From the NCBI GenBank assembly GCA_902765025.1, contig CACWYC010000001.1, forward strand, positions 71,586 to 135,585: a stretch of 64,000 bases of DNA. Direction: 5' to 3'. Below the pieces are notes generated by a model that was given only the letters and a program-made list of their open reading frames with translations, had not been told where the DNA came from and did not search any database. Shown here piece by piece: positions 35,367 through 40,219 of this stretch (the first letter of the stretch is position 1; each line of letters begins with the position of its first letter). The position numbers and the translations under genes were made by a program. Source of the DNA: Oscillospiraceae bacterium. GTDB taxonomy: Bacteria; Bacillota; Clostridia; Oscillospirales; Oscillospiraceae.

Positions 35367-36353
35367 TCAATCCATATAGCCGTACAGGCCCCGCACCGAC
35401 ACCTCGCCGCTTCGCAGCGTTTCGGTGCTGCCGTCGTCGTTGGCCACCACAAGACCGTATTGCGCATCCACCGTAAGGGCCGTGGCGGTGGTAACAGAGC
35501 CGCCTTCCAGAAGCTGCACCCGCTTGCCGGTGGTGAGGCAGCGGCTGCGATATGCCTCCAGCCATGCTTCGGGACGGAACAGCACCTCTCGGCGCAGCGT
35601 GTGAAGCTGCCGCACCATCTCCGCCGCCAGCGCCGCACGGGGGATGACGGTGGACAGCGCCATGTCCAACGACCCGGCAATGCTTTGCAGCTCCTCCGGG
35701 AAATCGTCTGGCTGCTGGCGGCAGTTGACGCCGATGCCCACCACCACGTAGTCCACCAGTCCGCTCTCCGCCTCCACGGACAGCTCCGTCAGGATGCCGC
35801 AGATTTTCCGCCCCGCCAGCACCAGGTCATTGGGCCACTTGATGCCGGGGGCCTCGCCCCCCAGCCGCTCCACTGCCCGGCTCACCGCCACGGCGCTGAG
35901 GGCCGTCAGTGGCAGCAGCGCGTCCGGGGCGCACTCGGGCCGCCACAGCACGGATAAATACAGCCCCTGTCCGGCAGGGGAGAGGAAGCTGCGGCCCCGG
36001 CGGCCCCGGCCGGCGGTCTGGTTGTCGGCAATGACCACCGTGCCGTCGGCTGTGCCTTGGGCGGCCAGCAGCTTGCAATAGTTATTGGTGGAGTCCACGG
36101 TGGACAGCACGTGGACGGGAGCGGGATACTCCCCCAGCGCGGCAGATACCAAAGCCTCGTCCAGCCTGTCACTGCTGCGCAGCCGGTAGCCCAGGCCGGA
36201 ACGGGCCTCAATGTCGTACCCCTCCCGGCGGAGGGCCTCCACCGCCTTCCACACCGCCGCCCGGCTGACGCCCAGGGCCTGGCTCAAGCGCTGACCTGAG
36301 ACAAATTCTCCACCCGCCTGGGCCAAAACGCGATATACCTCTGTGTACGCCAT
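35367..36353 (-). CDS. birA: Bifunctional biotin ligase/repressor BirA
   Basis: N-terminal HTH (SGQRLSQALGVSRAAVWK), DSTN, QTAGRGRRGR, KWPND, KICGIL, GIGVN. Confidence 0.95.
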   Translation of the reverse strand: MAYTEVYRVLAQAGGEFVSGQRLSQALGVSRAAVWKAVEALRREGYDIEARSGLGYRLRSSDRLDEALVSAALGEYPAPVHVLSTVDSTNNYCKLLAAQGTADGTVVIADNQTAGRGRRGRSFLSPAGQGLYLSVLWRPECAPDALLPLTALSAVAVSRAVERLGGEAPGIKWPNDLVLAGRKICGILTELSVEAESGLVDYVVVGIGVNCRQQPDDFPEELQSIAGSLDMALSTVIPRAALAAEMVRQLHTLRREVLFRPEAWLEAYRSRCLTTGKRVQLLEGGSVTTATALTVDAQYGLVVANDDGSTETLRSGEVSVRGLYGYMD

Positions 36354-36403
36354 TGCCACACCGCCTTTCTGATATAGTGCCACTTTACCACGGTTGCCCA
36401 CGG

Positions 36404-36435
36404 TTGTAAACATTTTTGCAGATACCCGTTGACAA
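36404..36435. promoter_or_regulatory. BirA operator 1 (overlaps the bioY -35 TTGACA)
   Basis: TTGTAAAC-N16-GTTGACAA matches the Firmicute BirA consensus. Confidence 0.8.
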
Positions 36436-36455
36436 TTAAGGCCGACGGGGCTATA

Positions 36456-36487
36456 TTGTAAACCAGATTTGTTTGGGAGGTTTACAA
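36456..36487. promoter_or_regulatory. BirA operator 2 (overlaps the bioY -10 end and RBS)
   Basis: Perfect TTGTAAAC-N16-GTTTACAA. Confidence 0.85.
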
Positions 36488-36489
36488 CT

Positions 36490-37026
36490 ATGAAGCTGCG
36501 CATGATGATATATACCGCCGTGTTCGCGGCACTTACGGCGGTGGGGGCCTTTTTGCGGCTGCCCATGTGGCCGGTGGCCATTACGCTGCAATTCCTGTTC
36601 ACCGCTATGGCGGGGGTGCTGCTGGGGGCCAAGTACGGCGCATTGAGCCAGGCGGTGTACGTGGCGGTGGGCCTGGTGGGCATCCCGGTGTTCACCATGG
36701 GCGGCGGCATCGGCTACGTGTTCCAGCCCTCCTTCGGCTTTTTGCTGGGGCTGATTCCGGCGGCGGCGGTCATCGGCGGCCTGTCCGCCAGGGCCAAATC
36801 CCCCTGGCGCATCGGCCTGGCGTGTCTCGCGGGGCTGGGGGTGCTGTACCTGGTGGGCCTGCCCTACATGGCGCTGATCCTTAACGTCTATATGGACCGG
36901 GGCATGTCCGCCTGGGATATTATATATAAGGGTATGCTGCTGTTCCTGCCCGGCGATATGCTGAAAATCGTGGTGACGGCGGTGCTTTGTCCCGTTCTTC
37001 GTAAACGCCTCCTGTTGGCCCAATAA
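36490..37026 (+). CDS. bioY: Biotin ECF transporter S component BioY
   Basis: PVAITLQ, GLVGIPVF, GYVFQPSFGFLLG, FLPGDMLK; divergent from birA. Confidence 0.93.
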   Translation: MKLRMMIYTAVFAALTAVGAFLRLPMWPVAITLQFLFTAMAGVLLGAKYGALSQAVYVAVGLVGIPVFTMGGGIGYVFQPSFGFLLGLIPAAAVIGGLSARAKSPWRIGLACLAGLGVLYLVGLPYMALILNVYMDRGMSAWDIIYKGMLLFLPGDMLKIVVTAVLCPVLRKRLLLAQ

Positions 37027-37090
37027 AGCCGTTGTGCAACGTGCCCAAATTCCAATGCGGAATTTGGACACATATTGGAAAAGAAAAATG

Positions 37091-37119
37091 TTGCAATTTG
37101 CCACACGGGCCAGTATAAT
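37091..37119 (+). promoter_or_regulatory. SigA promoter of the leader ORF-uracil permease unit
   Basis: TTGCAA-17bp-TATAAT. Confidence 0.8.
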
Positions 37120-37148
37120 AGGCGAGAAAATTGAGAGGAGGGGACACC

Positions 37149-37226
37149 ATGACCAACGTGCGCAGACAGTTGACGATGGATCGTGGCCTCTTTGTTTCCC
37201 TTTTCACCGATAGTGTTTCTTTTTGA
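37149..37226 (+). CDS. Putative attenuator leader peptide MTNVRRQLTMDRGLFVSLFTDSVSF (25 aa)
   Basis: Strong RBS GAGAGGAGG; U-rich 3' half; TGA forms the start of the terminator stem. Not in the ORF track. Confidence 0.6.
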   Translation: MTNVRRQLTMDRGLFVSLFTDSVSF

Positions 37227-37252
37227 CCGGTATTTTTACCGGTCATTTTTTT
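37224..37252 (+). terminator. Intrinsic terminator (attenuator) in the 5' leader of the uracil permease
   Basis: TGACCGGTA-TTTT-TACCGGTCA followed by 7 T. Confidence 0.8.
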
Positions 37253-37322
37253 ATGCTGTCGGATCAAGATTCGGTTGGCAATAGTTTAGATAGGACAAAT
37301 GAAGAAAGAGAGGATTACAAGA

Positions 37323-38660
37323 ATGAAGAAAGAGCTTGGCCAGGAGGCCATCTACGACGCCCGTGAGCTGGGCGTACCCCGCATGCTGGTGCTGGGACTG
37401 CAGCACCTGTTCGCCATGTTCGGCGCCACCGTGCTGGTGCCCATCCTGGTGTCCGGCTACGGCCTGCCCCTGTCCATCCAGACCACGCTGCTGATGGCGG
37501 GTCTCGGCACGCTGCTGTTCCACATCTGCACCAAGCTGAAGGTGCCCGCCTTCCTGGGCTCCTCCTTCGCCTATCTGGGCGGCTTTGAGGCTGTGGCCCA
37601 GCTCAACTCCGGCAAGTACGCCGACATGAGCGGCGACGAGAAGCTGGCCTACGCCCTGGGTGGCGTGGTCGTCGCCGGCGCGCTGTACCTGGTGCTGGCC
37701 CTGCTGTTCAAGGTGGTGGGCGCCAAGAAGGTCATGCGCTACTTCCCGCCCATCGTCACCGGCCCCATGATCATCATGATCGGCCTGAACCTGGCGGGCT
37801 CCGCCATCAACAACGCCCAGACCAACTGGTGGCTGGCACTGGTGGCCATCGCGGTCATCATCGTGGCCAACATCTGGGGCAAGGGCATGATCAAGATCAT
37901 CCCCATCCTGCTGGGCGTGGTGGTGAGCTACATCGTGGCTCTCATCTTCGGCCAGGTGGATTTCACCGCCGTGTCCCAGGCCAACATCGTGGGCCTGCAG
38001 AAGTTCACCATTGCCAAGTTTGACCTGACTTCCATCCTGGTGATGGCCCCCATCGCCATCGCCGCCATGATGGAGCACATCGGCGACGTGTCCGCCATCT
38101 CCTCCACCACCGGCCGCAACTTCATCGAGGATCCCGGCCTGCACCGCACCCTGATGGGCGACGGCCTGGCCACCGCCTTCGCCGCCCTGTTCGGCGGCCC
38201 CGCCAACACCACCTACGGTGAGAACACCGGCGTGCTGGCCCTGAGCCGGGTGTACGATCCCCGGGTCATCCGCCTGGCTGCCGTGTACGCCATCATCCTC
38301 AGCTTCTCCCCCAAGTTTGACGCTCTGGTCAACTCCATTCCCGCGGCCATCGTGGGCGGCGTCAGCTTCATCCTGTACGGCATGATCTCCGCCGTGGGCG
38401 TGCGCAACATCGTGGAGAACCGGGTGGACCTCACCAAGAGCCGCAACCTGATTATCGCCGCCGTCATGTTCGTCAGCGGCCTGGGCTTCAGCGCTGTGGG
38501 CGGCATCACCTTCATGGTGGGCGACGCGGCCATCACCCTCACCGGCCTGGCCATCGCGGCCCTTGCCGGTGTGGCCCTCAACGCCGTCCTGCCCGGCAAC
38601 GACTACGAGTTCGGCGCCAACCCCGCTGCCGACAAGTCCGCCGACATGGGCAGCTATTGA
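37323..38660 (+). CDS. uraA: Nucleobase:cation symporter-2 (uracil/xanthine permease, UraA/PyrP-like)
   Basis: QHLFAMFGATVLVP, FLGSSFAY, EHIGD, NTTYGENTG signature. Confidence 0.92.
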   Translation: MKKELGQEAIYDARELGVPRMLVLGLQHLFAMFGATVLVPILVSGYGLPLSIQTTLLMAGLGTLLFHICTKLKVPAFLGSSFAYLGGFEAVAQLNSGKYADMSGDEKLAYALGGVVVAGALYLVLALLFKVVGAKKVMRYFPPIVTGPMIIMIGLNLAGSAINNAQTNWWLALVAIAVIIVANIWGKGMIKIIPILLGVVVSYIVALIFGQVDFTAVSQANIVGLQKFTIAKFDLTSILVMAPIAIAAMMEHIGDVSAISSTTGRNFIEDPGLHRTLMGDGLATAFAALFGGPANTTYGENTGVLALSRVYDPRVIRLAAVYAIILSFSPKFDALVNSIPAAIVGGVSFILYGMISAVGVRNIVENRVDLTKSRNLIIAAVMFVSGLGFSAVGGITFMVGDAAITLTGLAIAALAGVALNAVLPGNDYEFGANPAADKSADMGSY

Positions 38661-38854
38661 TTGGTAAACGGCATCGTTTTCCATAATTACAGATTATTTC
38701 CCTTGCCATAATGCGTGCTGCGTCTGCGGCACGCATTTTGGCTTTCCAAGTCCTTCCCTCAGACGGCAAATTGTGCTGAATATCGTCTTGACAGGCCGAT
38801 TTTGCTGTGTTACACATAAAAAAGTGTAAGGTAAAATGGGTTAAAGGGGGCTGC

Positions 38855-40219
38855 ATGATGAAGCGCTGGGAGCGGATAAAAGATGACGGTCTGCCAATGC
38901 TGGTGGTCAATCGGGTGATGCTGGGCGTTGTGATTCTGATTTCCGTATTCCTGATTGTCACCATGCTGCAGACGTACCACCAGTTCCTGGACCTCTCCCA
39001 GGCCACGGAGCAGTATATTGATTTGCAACAGGCGGCCAATAGCCTGCGGGATGCCTCAGACTATCTCACCGAGAAGGTGCAGCGCTTCACCGCCACCGGC
39101 GACAGAACCCAGATGGACGACTATTTTGAAGAGGTATTCACCACCCGCCGCCGGGAGAACGCCGTAGCGGTCATGGAGCAGGGGCAGCCCGACAGCGCCG
39201 CCCTTGCCGACTTGCGGAACGCCATGCGGGAATCTGTGGCGCTGACAGAGCGGGAGTATTACGCCATGCGCCTGGTGGTGGAGGCCACGGGGATGAAGGA
39301 CTACCCGGCGGCGCTGGATGAGGTGACGCTGTCCGCCGCAGACGCAGCCCTCCGCCCTACCCAGATGTGTGAGCTGGCCCGGGATATGGTACATGATGAC
39401 ACGTATTTCCTGGCTAAGGAGGAGATTTGGCGGAGCATGGAGCGCAGCGTGATGGCCCTGGAGGACGCCACCCACCAGGTGTGGCGGGATGCCATCGTGA
39501 AATTGCGGCGCCATATCCGCACCGTTTTCATCCTCATCCTTGCGCAGGTGGTGCAAATCGTGGCTATGGTGATGATGACGGTGCGTCTGGGCATCCGCCC
39601 GGTGCTGACGGCGGCCCGCCGTATCCGGGAGGACAGTCCCATTCCCGTGTCCGGCGCCCTGGAATTCCGGGTTCTGGCCAAGAGCTACAACAAGATGTAT
39701 GACGCCTACAAGCGCAGTATTGAGAATCTGAATTTCAAGGCGTCCCACGACGCCCTGACCCATGTGTATAACCGTGAGGGCTATGACTTGATCCTGTCCA
39801 CGCTGGATCTGCACTCCACCACCATGCTGCTGGTGGATGCCGACCATTTTAAGAAGATTAACGACACCTACGGCCACGAGACCGGCGACAAGGTGTTGCA
39901 GCGCATCGCCACCGCCCTCCGCCGCTGCTTCCGCTCTGACGACTACGTCTGCCGCCTGGGCGGTGACGAGCTTGCGGTGCTGATGGTGCATGCTGACAGC
40001 TCCCTGGATCAGCTGATTACCCAAAAGGTGGGGCGTGTCAACGAAATGCTGGCCGACAGCAGCGACGGTATGCCTGCCGTTTCCGTCAGCGTGGGCGTGG
40101 CCCACGGCGGCGATGCCCGGGACGCCGCGGAGCTGTACCGCCACGCCGACATGGCGCTGTACGAGACCAAGGAGAATGGCCGCGCCGGCTGCTCGTTTTA
40201 CCAGAACACCGTCGCGTGA
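38855..40219 (+). CDS. Membrane-anchored GGDEF-domain protein (GGDEL variant)
   Basis: Two TM helices flanking an extracytoplasmic domain; DALTHVYNR, DADHFKKINDTYGH, RLGGDEL, ADMALYETK. Confidence 0.88.
   Translation: MMKRWERIKDDGLPMLVVNRVMLGVVILISVFLIVTMLQTYHQFLDLSQATEQYIDLQQAANSLRDASDYLTEKVQRFTATGDRTQMDDYFEEVFTTRRRENAVAVMEQGQPDSAALADLRNAMRESVALTEREYYAMRLVVEATGMKDYPAALDEVTLSAADAALRPTQMCELARDMVHDDTYFLAKEEIWRSMERSVMALEDATHQVWRDAIVKLRRHIRTVFILILAQVVQIVAMVMMTVRLGIRPVLTAARRIREDSPIPVSGALEFRVLAKSYNKMYDAYKRSIENLNFKASHDALTHVYNREGYDLILSTLDLHSTTMLLVDADHFKKINDTYGHETGDKVLQRIATALRRCFRSDDYVCRLGGDELAVLMVHADSSLDQLITQKVGRVNEMLADSSDGMPAVSVSVGVAHGGDARDAAELYRHADMALYETKENGRAGCSFYQNTVA

Follow-up and report, generated by a model that had tools for sequence, protein, structure and literature searches.

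The locus and its leader

The DNA under study, here called the window, is a stretch of 64,000 nt (contig CACWYC010000001.1, positions 71,586 to 135,585 of the forward strand) from the genome of an Oscillospiraceae bacterium (assembly GCA_902765025.1; 2.06 Mb, 98% complete, 61% G+C). Our subject is a leader that lies upstream of a gene for a likely uracil permease. Here a promoter and a strong Shine–Dalgarno (SD) sequence are followed by a short upstream open reading frame (ORF; uORF), the 3' part of which is rich in U, and by an intrinsic terminator ahead of the permease gene (Table 1).

When the sequence was read again, the consensus promoter, the strong ribosome binding site and the 25-codon ORF that the first-pass annotation had described were all in place. 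A recount returned its figures unchanged, with 7 U in the first 38 nt of the ORF and 21 U (31 pyrimidines) in the last 40 nt. The stop codon TGA does supply bases 1 to 3 of the 9-bp terminator stem, the U7 tail follows it, and the permease ATG lies 70 nt beyond the terminator.

These features go beyond chance. A rule-based scan of the whole genome for an SD, a short ORF, a stop codon in a stem and a U-rich tract in combination gave this locus as its sole case. When the covariance model that we built for the leader (R1) was run on the same genome, the permease leader was likewise the only locus matched, and the upp gene has no leader of this kind.

Because a terminator follows the permease gene, we treat the gene as a single-gene unit. 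Its start was set at 37323, since the upstream ATG at 37299 is missing in relatives. Membership of the NCS2 family is well founded (TIGR00801, 331 bits, above the cut-off); the specific name of uracil permease holds as a best match, with NCBIfam model NF007995 at 325 bits, under its equivalog cut-off of 477 bits, ahead of RutG and xanthine permease. The best match in the PDB is E. coli UraA (approximately 220 bits). The alignment to UraA keeps the equivalents of Phe73, Glu241 and Gly289-Glu290, which, together with His245, we take to be the uracil-ligand residues of the UraA structure paper. A permease of the uracil type is therefore likely from these similarities.

Table 1. Features of the permease leader and transcription unit (window coordinates)
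Feature	Position	Strand	Basis
Sigma-70-type promoter: TTGCAA (37091-37096), 17-bp spacer, TATAAT (37114-37119)	37091..37119	+	Sequence
SD of leader ORF, GAGAGGAGGGG; ATG 5 nt on	37133..37143	+	Sequence
Leader ORF (uORF), 25 codons and TGA; peptide MTNVRRQLTMDRGLFVSLFTDSVSF*	37149..37226	+	ATG 37149, TGA 37224-37226
U-rich/pyrimidine-rich 3' part of leader ORF; proposed UTP-sensitive pause region	37187..37223	+	Composition
Outer helix, CCGAUAGUGU (37207-37216) with AUGCUGUCGG (37253-37262); 10 bp with G-U pairs	37207..37262	+	Minimum free energy fold
Intrinsic terminator (attenuator): 9-bp stem TGACCGGTA/TACCGGTCA, loop UUUU, U7 tail	37224..37252	+	Terminator prediction
SD region of permease, AAAGAGAGGA; strongly conserved as GAAAGAGAGGA in relatives	37305..37314	+	Sequence, alignment
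NCS2 nucleobase:cation symporter, uracil-permease type, 445 aa; regulated gene	37323..38660	+	HMM and PDB matches
Terminator 3' of permease gene	38710..38737	+	Terminator prediction

Conservation of the layout

To compare leaders, 80 loci with permeases of 81–99% identity were collected, from which 74 non-identical leaders were counted; in each of these the ORF was taken to begin at the ATG behind the best SD. The loci belong to rumen and gut Oscillospiraceae, among them Vescimonas, Hominicoprocola, Brotocaccenecus, Oscillibacter sp. CAG:241, Neopoerus and many metagenome-assembled genomes. Cultured bacteria that carry the leader include Hominicoprocola fusiformis CLA-AA-H269 (L048), Brotocaccenecus cirricatena CLA-AA-H272 (L019), Oscillibacter sp. 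MSJ-31 (L033) and Neopoerus faecalis (L080). The layout that had been described for a single leader proved to be conserved once the upstream regions of orthologues were aligned: some 70 non-identical leaders combine a uORF, a U-tract and a stop placed in the stem, and they come from several Oscillospiraceae genera as well as from another family of the order.

Nearly all related leaders share one plan: a promoter with a 17-bp spacer, a short 5' untranslated region (UTR), a strong SD, an ORF, a stop codon in the 5' arm of the terminator, and then the permease gene. The -35/17 bp/-10 arrangement recurs among the 43 related leaders listed, and a GGAGG-like SD lies ahead of the leader ATG in relatives. 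The uORFs are 17–36 codons long (mode 24), and the spacer between terminator and permease measures 41–160 nt, mostly 45–90 nt.

The peptides diverge while the register between the reading frame and the hairpin is kept. In the frame set by the SD and ATG, the first stop codon falls within -3 to +9 nt of the start of the stem in 70 of the 74 leaders; in the +1 and +2 frames this is so in 2/74 and 1/74, respectively, and most of these frames are closed by earlier stops. The register is held over 33 different 5' arms (e.g., TGACCGGTA, TAACCGGTA, GACCGATG, CGTCGGTAG, and GACAATCAC), of which GACAATCAC and CGTCGGTAG are unrelated to the stem in the window. Two sub-designs can be distinguished. In one, the stop codon sits at the foot of the stem, with TGA or TAA as stem bases 1–3, and in the other it sits at the top of the 5' arm (GAC CGG TAA, CGT CGG TAG).

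Beyond a basic start and an end rich in V, F, I, and S, the leader peptides have little in common, and this bears on one alternative, a nascent-peptide arrest of the TnaC type, in which a ligand such as uracil would stall the ribosome at the stop codon and mask the terminator. The position of the stop in the stem would suit such a device, since a stalled terminating ribosome could block the hairpin from there. The C-termini, however, vary freely (...SVSF, ...VIAK, ...VFPF, ...SFDR, ...VSRR), as do the stop codon and the length, and conservation sits in the nucleotide composition instead. We therefore hold an arrest peptide to be highly improbable.

For more distant relatives, the order was sampled through the permease protein and the family through the covariance model. 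The design is also present at orthologues of 68–74% identity in other genera of the family; L157 and L159 have the stop codon at the stem foot, L158 has it where the loop begins, and L114 and L115 have it a few nt before the stem. In a second family, f88 (L118–L120), the design recurs, and the ORF there stops either in the loop or in the distal 5' arm. It is absent at the sampled orthologues of families f2, f3, f99, f100, and f103 and at those with at most 54% identity. Wherever the layout was found, it stands directly upstream of the permease orthologue.

Should you wish to search for such leaders with a profile, caution is advised. We searched 400 genomes of the class with R1 and inspected its best 20 matches outside the family (L093–L112), none of which (0/20) precedes a permease homologue. 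Most of the extra-family matches are the SD and the Lys-rich, then hydrophobic, N-terminus of ordinary ORFs. The model is unspecific at this distance, therefore its tally of 189/399 is meaningless and R1 was rejected as a distant detector; cross-matches of this kind are a warning against searches that use a profile only.

Other families have other sequences at this position. A search of 20 upstream regions of other-family orthologues against Rfam returned no family and no PyrR element. The orthologues of f100 (L129, L130) have a conserved leader of approximately 190 nt that ends in a terminator-like hairpin and has neither a uORF nor an Rfam match, and those of f2 (L125–L127) have a T5 run directly after the -10 element (TATGAT-ATTTTTAATTG). 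These leaders may be other, undescribed pyrimidine controls.

U-richness of the leader tail

The second conserved property is composition. For 71 distinct leader ORFs, the last 13 codons were compared with the permease genes of the same loci. U stands at 33% of first, 51% of second, and 69% of third codon positions in the leader tail, versus 14%, 40%, and 10% in the permease genes. The preference among synonymous codons is inverted: U-ending codons account for 92% of Val (GTT) in the tail versus 7% in the permease genes, for 82% versus 10% of Ile (ATT), for 82% versus 17% of Phe (TTT), for 59% versus 5% of Ser, for 63% versus 10% of Ala, and for 65% versus 4% of Thr. With synonymous sites turned toward U, selection must act on the RNA (or DNA) sequence rather than on the peptide.

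Position within the leader matters too. The first half of the ORF is A-rich, owing to Lys codons; about 42 nt ahead of the stem, the family profile turns abruptly to U, which makes up 50–78% from -33 nt onward. In the window, the 40 nt upstream of the terminator have a U fraction of 0.525, the highest value among 181 strong predicted terminators of the genome (mean 0.21, standard deviation 0.08). Such selection for U is what a device that counts U incorporation needs, and it argues against a functional small protein as well as against an arrest peptide.

One might otherwise suppose that nothing is sensed here, that is, that the ORF arose by chance or is just a gene for a small protein, with a terminator of its own, and that the permease is expressed by constitutive leak-through or from its own promoter. 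A basic N-terminus and a hydrophobic end are features of many small membrane peptides, and the covariance model does cross-match the N-termini of membrane proteins. The hydrophobic stretch, on the other hand, is only some 12 residues long with an Asp inside, too short for a membrane helix, and a poorly conserved peptide does not explain synonymous sites driven to U. A promoter scan found no promoter within the 70 nt between terminator and permease, a spacer that is not conserved, and the layout occurs nowhere else in the genome than directly before the permease. This explanation is, in our view, very unlikely.

A further alternative takes the same anatomy, which would serve any mechanism in which a ribosome chases the polymerase, and gives it another signal. 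U-ending codons are rare in this host genome, and Val, Ser, Phe, and Ile dominate the tail (U at third positions 0.69 versus 0.10), so that the leader could read translation capacity or charged tRNA through its rare U-ending Val, Phe, Ile, and Ser codons, with fast decoding leading to read-through. Against this, the enrichment in U extends over all three codon positions and all amino-acid classes (Ala, Thr, Pro, Cys, Asp, and Asn among them) and does not single out the codons of one amino acid; no alternative antiterminator is present that stalling could favour; and the regulated gene encodes a nucleobase permease, not an amino-acid or translation protein, in a genome that appears to depend on uracil salvage. 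A translation-rate sensor thus seems rather unlikely to us.

Rho-dependent attenuation, with the pyrimidine-rich tail, if untranslated, as the loading site for Rho, can be dealt with more briefly. Rho of B. subtilis prefers RNA that is T-rich and has C over G (PMC13323073). The tract is approximately 42 nt long, however, versus more than 150 nt reported for the targets of B. subtilis Rho (PMC13323073), a canonical intrinsic terminator follows it directly, and a search of the genome, which is 98% complete, turned up no rho gene. The idea is close to refuted, and we give it practically no credence.

RNA structure and searches for other control elements

In a consensus fold of 52 leaders (RNAalifold), the terminator is the only conserved helix, and 7 of its 8 pairs show compensatory changes. 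Each leader was also folded up to the terminator loop, and no consistent antiterminator partner for the 5' arm was found (upstream pairing averages 0.39). In the fold of the window leader with minimum free energy (MFE), the terminator together with its U tract sits inside an outer helix (Table 1); this helix is confined to the nearest relatives (L010 identical, L005 in part) and is not a family-wide element.

A classical amino-acid attenuator of the trpL, hisL, or pheL type was rejected on this evidence, as there is no conserved second helix and pairing of the 5' arm is inconsistent. Nor is there a run of codons for an amino acid that the regulated gene would help to make or import: V, S, F, I, D, A, and P are mixed in the tail, and the product encoded downstream is a nucleobase permease.

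The folds do offer some material for an alternative in which a trans-acting RNA-binding protein or small RNA recognizes U-rich motifs (GUUUC or UUNUUU) or a helix between the SD and the tract, with the ORF as a secondary feature. The window leader has a very stable fold (z-score -7.3) in which the pyrimidine tract is paired to the SD region, and 90% of the MFE folds in the family contain such pairing between SD and tail. GTTTC/GTTTCC and GATATTGTTTC strings recur in the tail, and TTNTTT, the motif of NusG-type pauses, is modestly enriched (47/71 leaders versus 36 ± 4 in shuffles). The family z-scores, though, are weak (median -1.0, hardly better than shuffles), the terminator is the only conserved helix, PyrR is absent, and a trans-acting factor leaves unexplained why frame and stop codon keep their register in 70/74 leaders over 33 stems. 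We did not take the pairing of SD and tail as a finding, because pairing is to be expected between a purine-rich SD and any pyrimidine tract, and we consider such a factor improbable.

The first-pass annotation had seen neither a PyrR box nor a riboswitch in the leader, and both absences withstood wider searches. Rfam models run on the window leader at E ≤ 10 gave no known riboswitch or PyrR element, the output being terminator-driven noise, and a genome-wide search with the PyrR element RF00515 returned nothing at the leader locus. With a 5' UTR of approximately 20 nt, no Rfam family and no conserved helix besides the terminator, the leader does not have the makings of a riboswitch. It belongs to none of the PyrR, riboswitch, or T-box classes.

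The same RF00515 search gave four weak matches elsewhere in the genome (at most 31 bits against a cut-off of 54), none of which adjoins pyr genes. These were rejected as PyrR leaders, being copies of an intergenic repeat or located after genes. The best two (C1:57698-57817 and C45:8858-8948) are copies of one repeat, approximately 150 nt long and with two or three hairpins that resemble terminators (GTGACG..CGTCAC-T6; CAAAAAACGGC..GCCGTTTTTTG).

Control at initiation was considered as well. Reiterative transcription needs at least three T at the start, and the start in the window reads GAAAATTGAG, with TT only, so it was rejected for this leader. A run of T3–T5 near the start is present in 14 of the 43 related leaders listed. 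In one sub-clade (L012, L016, L017, L020, L022, L023, L028, L031, L032, L044, and L047) the start reads GAAAATTTTGA (in one case GAAATTTTTGA), so that a T4–T5 run lies near the predicted start site, approximately 7 nt after the -10 element, which is the sequence required for reiterative transcription sensitive to uridine triphosphate (UTP). Members of the GAAAATTTTGA sub-clade may combine two UTP-dependent controls, as pyrBI does.

Proposed mechanism

In our judgement, the leader is probably a transcription attenuator of the pyrBI/pyrE type, operated by a ribosome and reading the pool of UTP, or of pyrimidine nucleoside triphosphates. Its parts are in place, its stop codon is held in register with the hairpin, and its tail is under selection for U at the level of nucleotides. 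Dependence on the ribosome has strong support; UTP as the signal, like pausing and coupling, is inferred. What these parts would do in the cell can be set out as follows.

The transcript would begin approximately 7 nt beyond TATAAT, and the 5' UTR of the leader RNA would measure approximately 20 nt. At high UTP, the polymerase would pass quickly through the U-rich last ~40 nt of the ORF and through the terminator with no ribosome close behind; the 9-bp hairpin would form and the transcript would end at the U7 tract, before the permease gene. At low UTP, the polymerase would dwell at the many positions that call for U (21 of 40), and a ribosome loaded at the strong SD would catch up, to be on the last codons or the stop codon when the polymerase is at the U7 tract.

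The geometry of the stop codon is what would make this ribosome matter. A ribosome whose A site is occupied by the stop codon should hold about the next dozen nt of mRNA in its channel, which covers the whole 9-nt 5' arm. Since the stop is made of the first three bases of the stem, the ribosome would hold the 5' arm, the hairpin would be blocked, and read-through would allow the permease to be made. The polymerase at the U7 tract would be approximately 29 nt past the stop codon, so that a ribosome at the stop would nearly touch it, and only a ribosome directly behind the polymerase could prevent termination. Published data on position and function agree with this, in that termination at a terminator a few bp after a translated gene is almost abolished by the ribosome and recovers with distance (PMC4824070).

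Read-through would, in this scheme, depend on translation of the leader, and the ORF would contribute more than a physical obstacle. By the established kinetics of termination, low UTP in the absence of a ribosome should if anything raise termination at the U tract. Low UTP alone would thus favour termination, and it is the leader ORF that would give the switch its useful sign. Imported uracil would then be converted to uridine monophosphate by Upp and UTP would be restored, so that the circuit would be one of negative feedback. More speculatively, the finished pyrimidine tract might pair with the SD and close off late loading of ribosomes.

Genome content and pyrimidine physiology

The first-pass annotation had put the leader forward as a candidate for control independent of PyrR, and the genome supports this, since neither a PyrR protein nor a PyrR RNA element at a pyr gene was found. 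The best match to the PyrR model NF003545 scores 39 bits (cut-off 140), and the ORF in question reads as a hypoxanthine phosphoribosyltransferase (Hpt).

The upp gene is present (C7:50421-51038, 284 bits). Two genes of pyrimidine synthesis were not found in the genome: for pyrB (aspartate carbamoyltransferase), the best match has 75 bits against a cut-off of 237, and for pyrF (orotidine monophosphate decarboxylase), the sole match to the OMPdecase-family Pfam model is ribulose-phosphate 3-epimerase. With upp present and pyrB and pyrF not found, this bacterium is probably auxotrophic for pyrimidines and meets its needs by uracil salvage. pyrB was also not found in a genome of the same genus and in two other leader-bearing genera, and it was found in 98 of the 121 genera of the family.

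Over these 121 genera, the distribution of both genes goes in the direction one would expect and is not significant. PyrR-like genes were seen in 0/9 leader-bearing versus 25/112 other genera (p approximately 0.12), and pyrB is lacking in 4/9 versus 19/112.

Comparison with known systems

The leader of pyrBI in E. coli and Salmonella, with its pyrL leader peptide, is a UTP-sensitive, translation-coupled attenuator, mentioned in PMC6524683. It shares with the leader described here a promoter, a leader ORF that is translated or, here, predicted to be so, and a U-rich tract before an intrinsic terminator, and it too has no antiterminator and no regulatory protein. The proposed logic is also the same, in that the ribosome would prevent the hairpin and low UTP would lead to read-through into a gene of pyrimidine supply. 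There is, however, no sequence homology between the two. The pyrL ORF (44 codons) runs through and past the terminator, whereas the leader ORFs here (17–36 codons) end in its 5' arm; pyrBI controls aspartate transcarbamoylase in place of a uracil permease, and the present host belongs to a lineage of the Clostridia. Finally, pyrBI has a second control by reiterative transcription, and the leader in the window lacks the required start run of at least three T.

For the geometry of the stop codon, the nearest match is rph-pyrE of E. coli, where an upstream ORF ends at or just before the attenuator hairpin and a close ribosome suppresses termination at low UTP. In that case the upstream ORF is full-length rph, and its stop codon lies a few nt before the hairpin rather than in the stem. 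Among the Bacillota, the tet(M) leader of Tn916 is a case where a ribosome on a short leader with rare codons must keep pace with the polymerase to prevent a terminator from forming; it differs in its signal, which is the status of translation or charged tRNA under tetracycline, and it has no U-tract logic.

PyrR controls the pyr operon and pyrP by attenuation in Bacillus and elsewhere among the Bacillota (PMC6524683). These systems resemble the present one in that a uracil permease is subject to premature termination in its leader in response to uridine nucleotides. PyrR, though, binds a conserved anti-antiterminator hairpin, and here no PyrR, no RF00515 element and no antiterminator were found. 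The E. coli operons upp-uraA and codBA use UTP-sensitive reiterative transcription or start-site choice, which needs at least three T at the start (PMC6524683). They are alike in that, as proposed here, a gene for uracil salvage or uptake is under direct control by UTP with no repressor, but they act at initiation, and the start in the window has TT only.

Judged by sequence, then, the leader appears to have what one should look for in an attenuator of the pyrBI/pyrE type: a conserved uORF start, an intrinsic terminator, a stop codon at the hairpin, a U-rich tract, and neither an antiterminator nor a regulatory protein. It resembles pyrBI and pyrE without being homologous to them, and it differs from them in where the stop codon lies, in which gene is under control, in phylum, and, in the window, in the lack of control at initiation. 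Searches of the literature, made in an incomplete full-text collection, gave no description of such a leader in Clostridia. What they did give is control by PyrR in Bacillota and, from enterics only, coupled attenuation that responds to UTP, in line with the earlier remark that the arrangement would be unusual for the phylum.

Points that call for caution

Several observations weigh against the attenuator that we propose and should be kept in mind. The most important biological one concerns coupling. In B. subtilis, the RNA polymerase outruns the ribosomes, a state known as runaway transcription (PMC13323073), and close coupling cannot be assumed in Bacillota. The composition of the coding strand does not help in this respect: purine content is 50.4% over 747 long ORFs, that is, there is no purine bias, and such bias has been reported as lost in Bacillota without Rho (PMC13323073). 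Because Rho is absent, the measure is uninformative on coupling.

The rare U-ending codons cut both ways. They may slow the ribosome, which would hinder it in catching up with the polymerase, or may turn the leader into a sensor of translation rate. The predicted pairing between the SD and the pyrimidine tract also offers another reason for the composition of the tract. As regards the permease, His245 of UraA aligns with an Asp, and the substrate is read from similarity only. The 74 leaders, moreover, share descent, so counts made over them overstate their independence.

Neighbouring genes and features

Between the stop codon of the upstream gene and the leader promoter lies a perfect 9-bp hairpin, CCAAATTCC-aatgc-GGAATTTGG (37044-37068), which has no U tail and could be a weak terminator or a protein-binding palindrome. 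The upstream gene is an ORF of 185 aa (36469-37026), divergent from birA (35367-36710, minus strand) and with no NCBIfam match; on sight only, it resembles a BioY-type membrane protein. Two TTGTAAAC boxes flank its near-consensus promoter, TTGACA-17-TATATT (36395-36460). Given these boxes at the promoter and the divergent birA, this is probably a biotin uptake gene under BirA control. On the other side, the gene after the permease terminator (38807-40219) encodes a GGDEF diguanylate cyclase of 470 aa, with a promoter-like site at 38809.

Significance for pyrimidine control in gut and rumen Bacillota

UTP-sensitive coupled attenuation is a textbook mechanism that is known experimentally only from enterics. 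A conserved leader of the pyrBI/pyrE kind in the abundant Clostridia of gut and rumen would show that repression without a repressor has arisen convergently. In its wider form, the proposal is that in gut and rumen Oscillospiraceae a protein-free race between RNA polymerase and ribosome replaces PyrR at the uracil permease, and that it is the main control of pyrimidine supply where pyrB, pyrF, PyrR, and Rho have been lost; we give this an even chance of being right.

If true, tight coupling of transcription and translation is put to regulatory use in Clostridia, unlike in the B. subtilis model, and the leader is a compact natural reporter of coupling in anaerobic gut Bacillota. It would also provide a sequence signature with which pyrimidine-regulated genes could be annotated in uncultured Bacillota that have no PyrR. 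The apparent dependence of this organism on external uracil, for its part, bears on cultivation and on cross-feeding in the rumen and gut.

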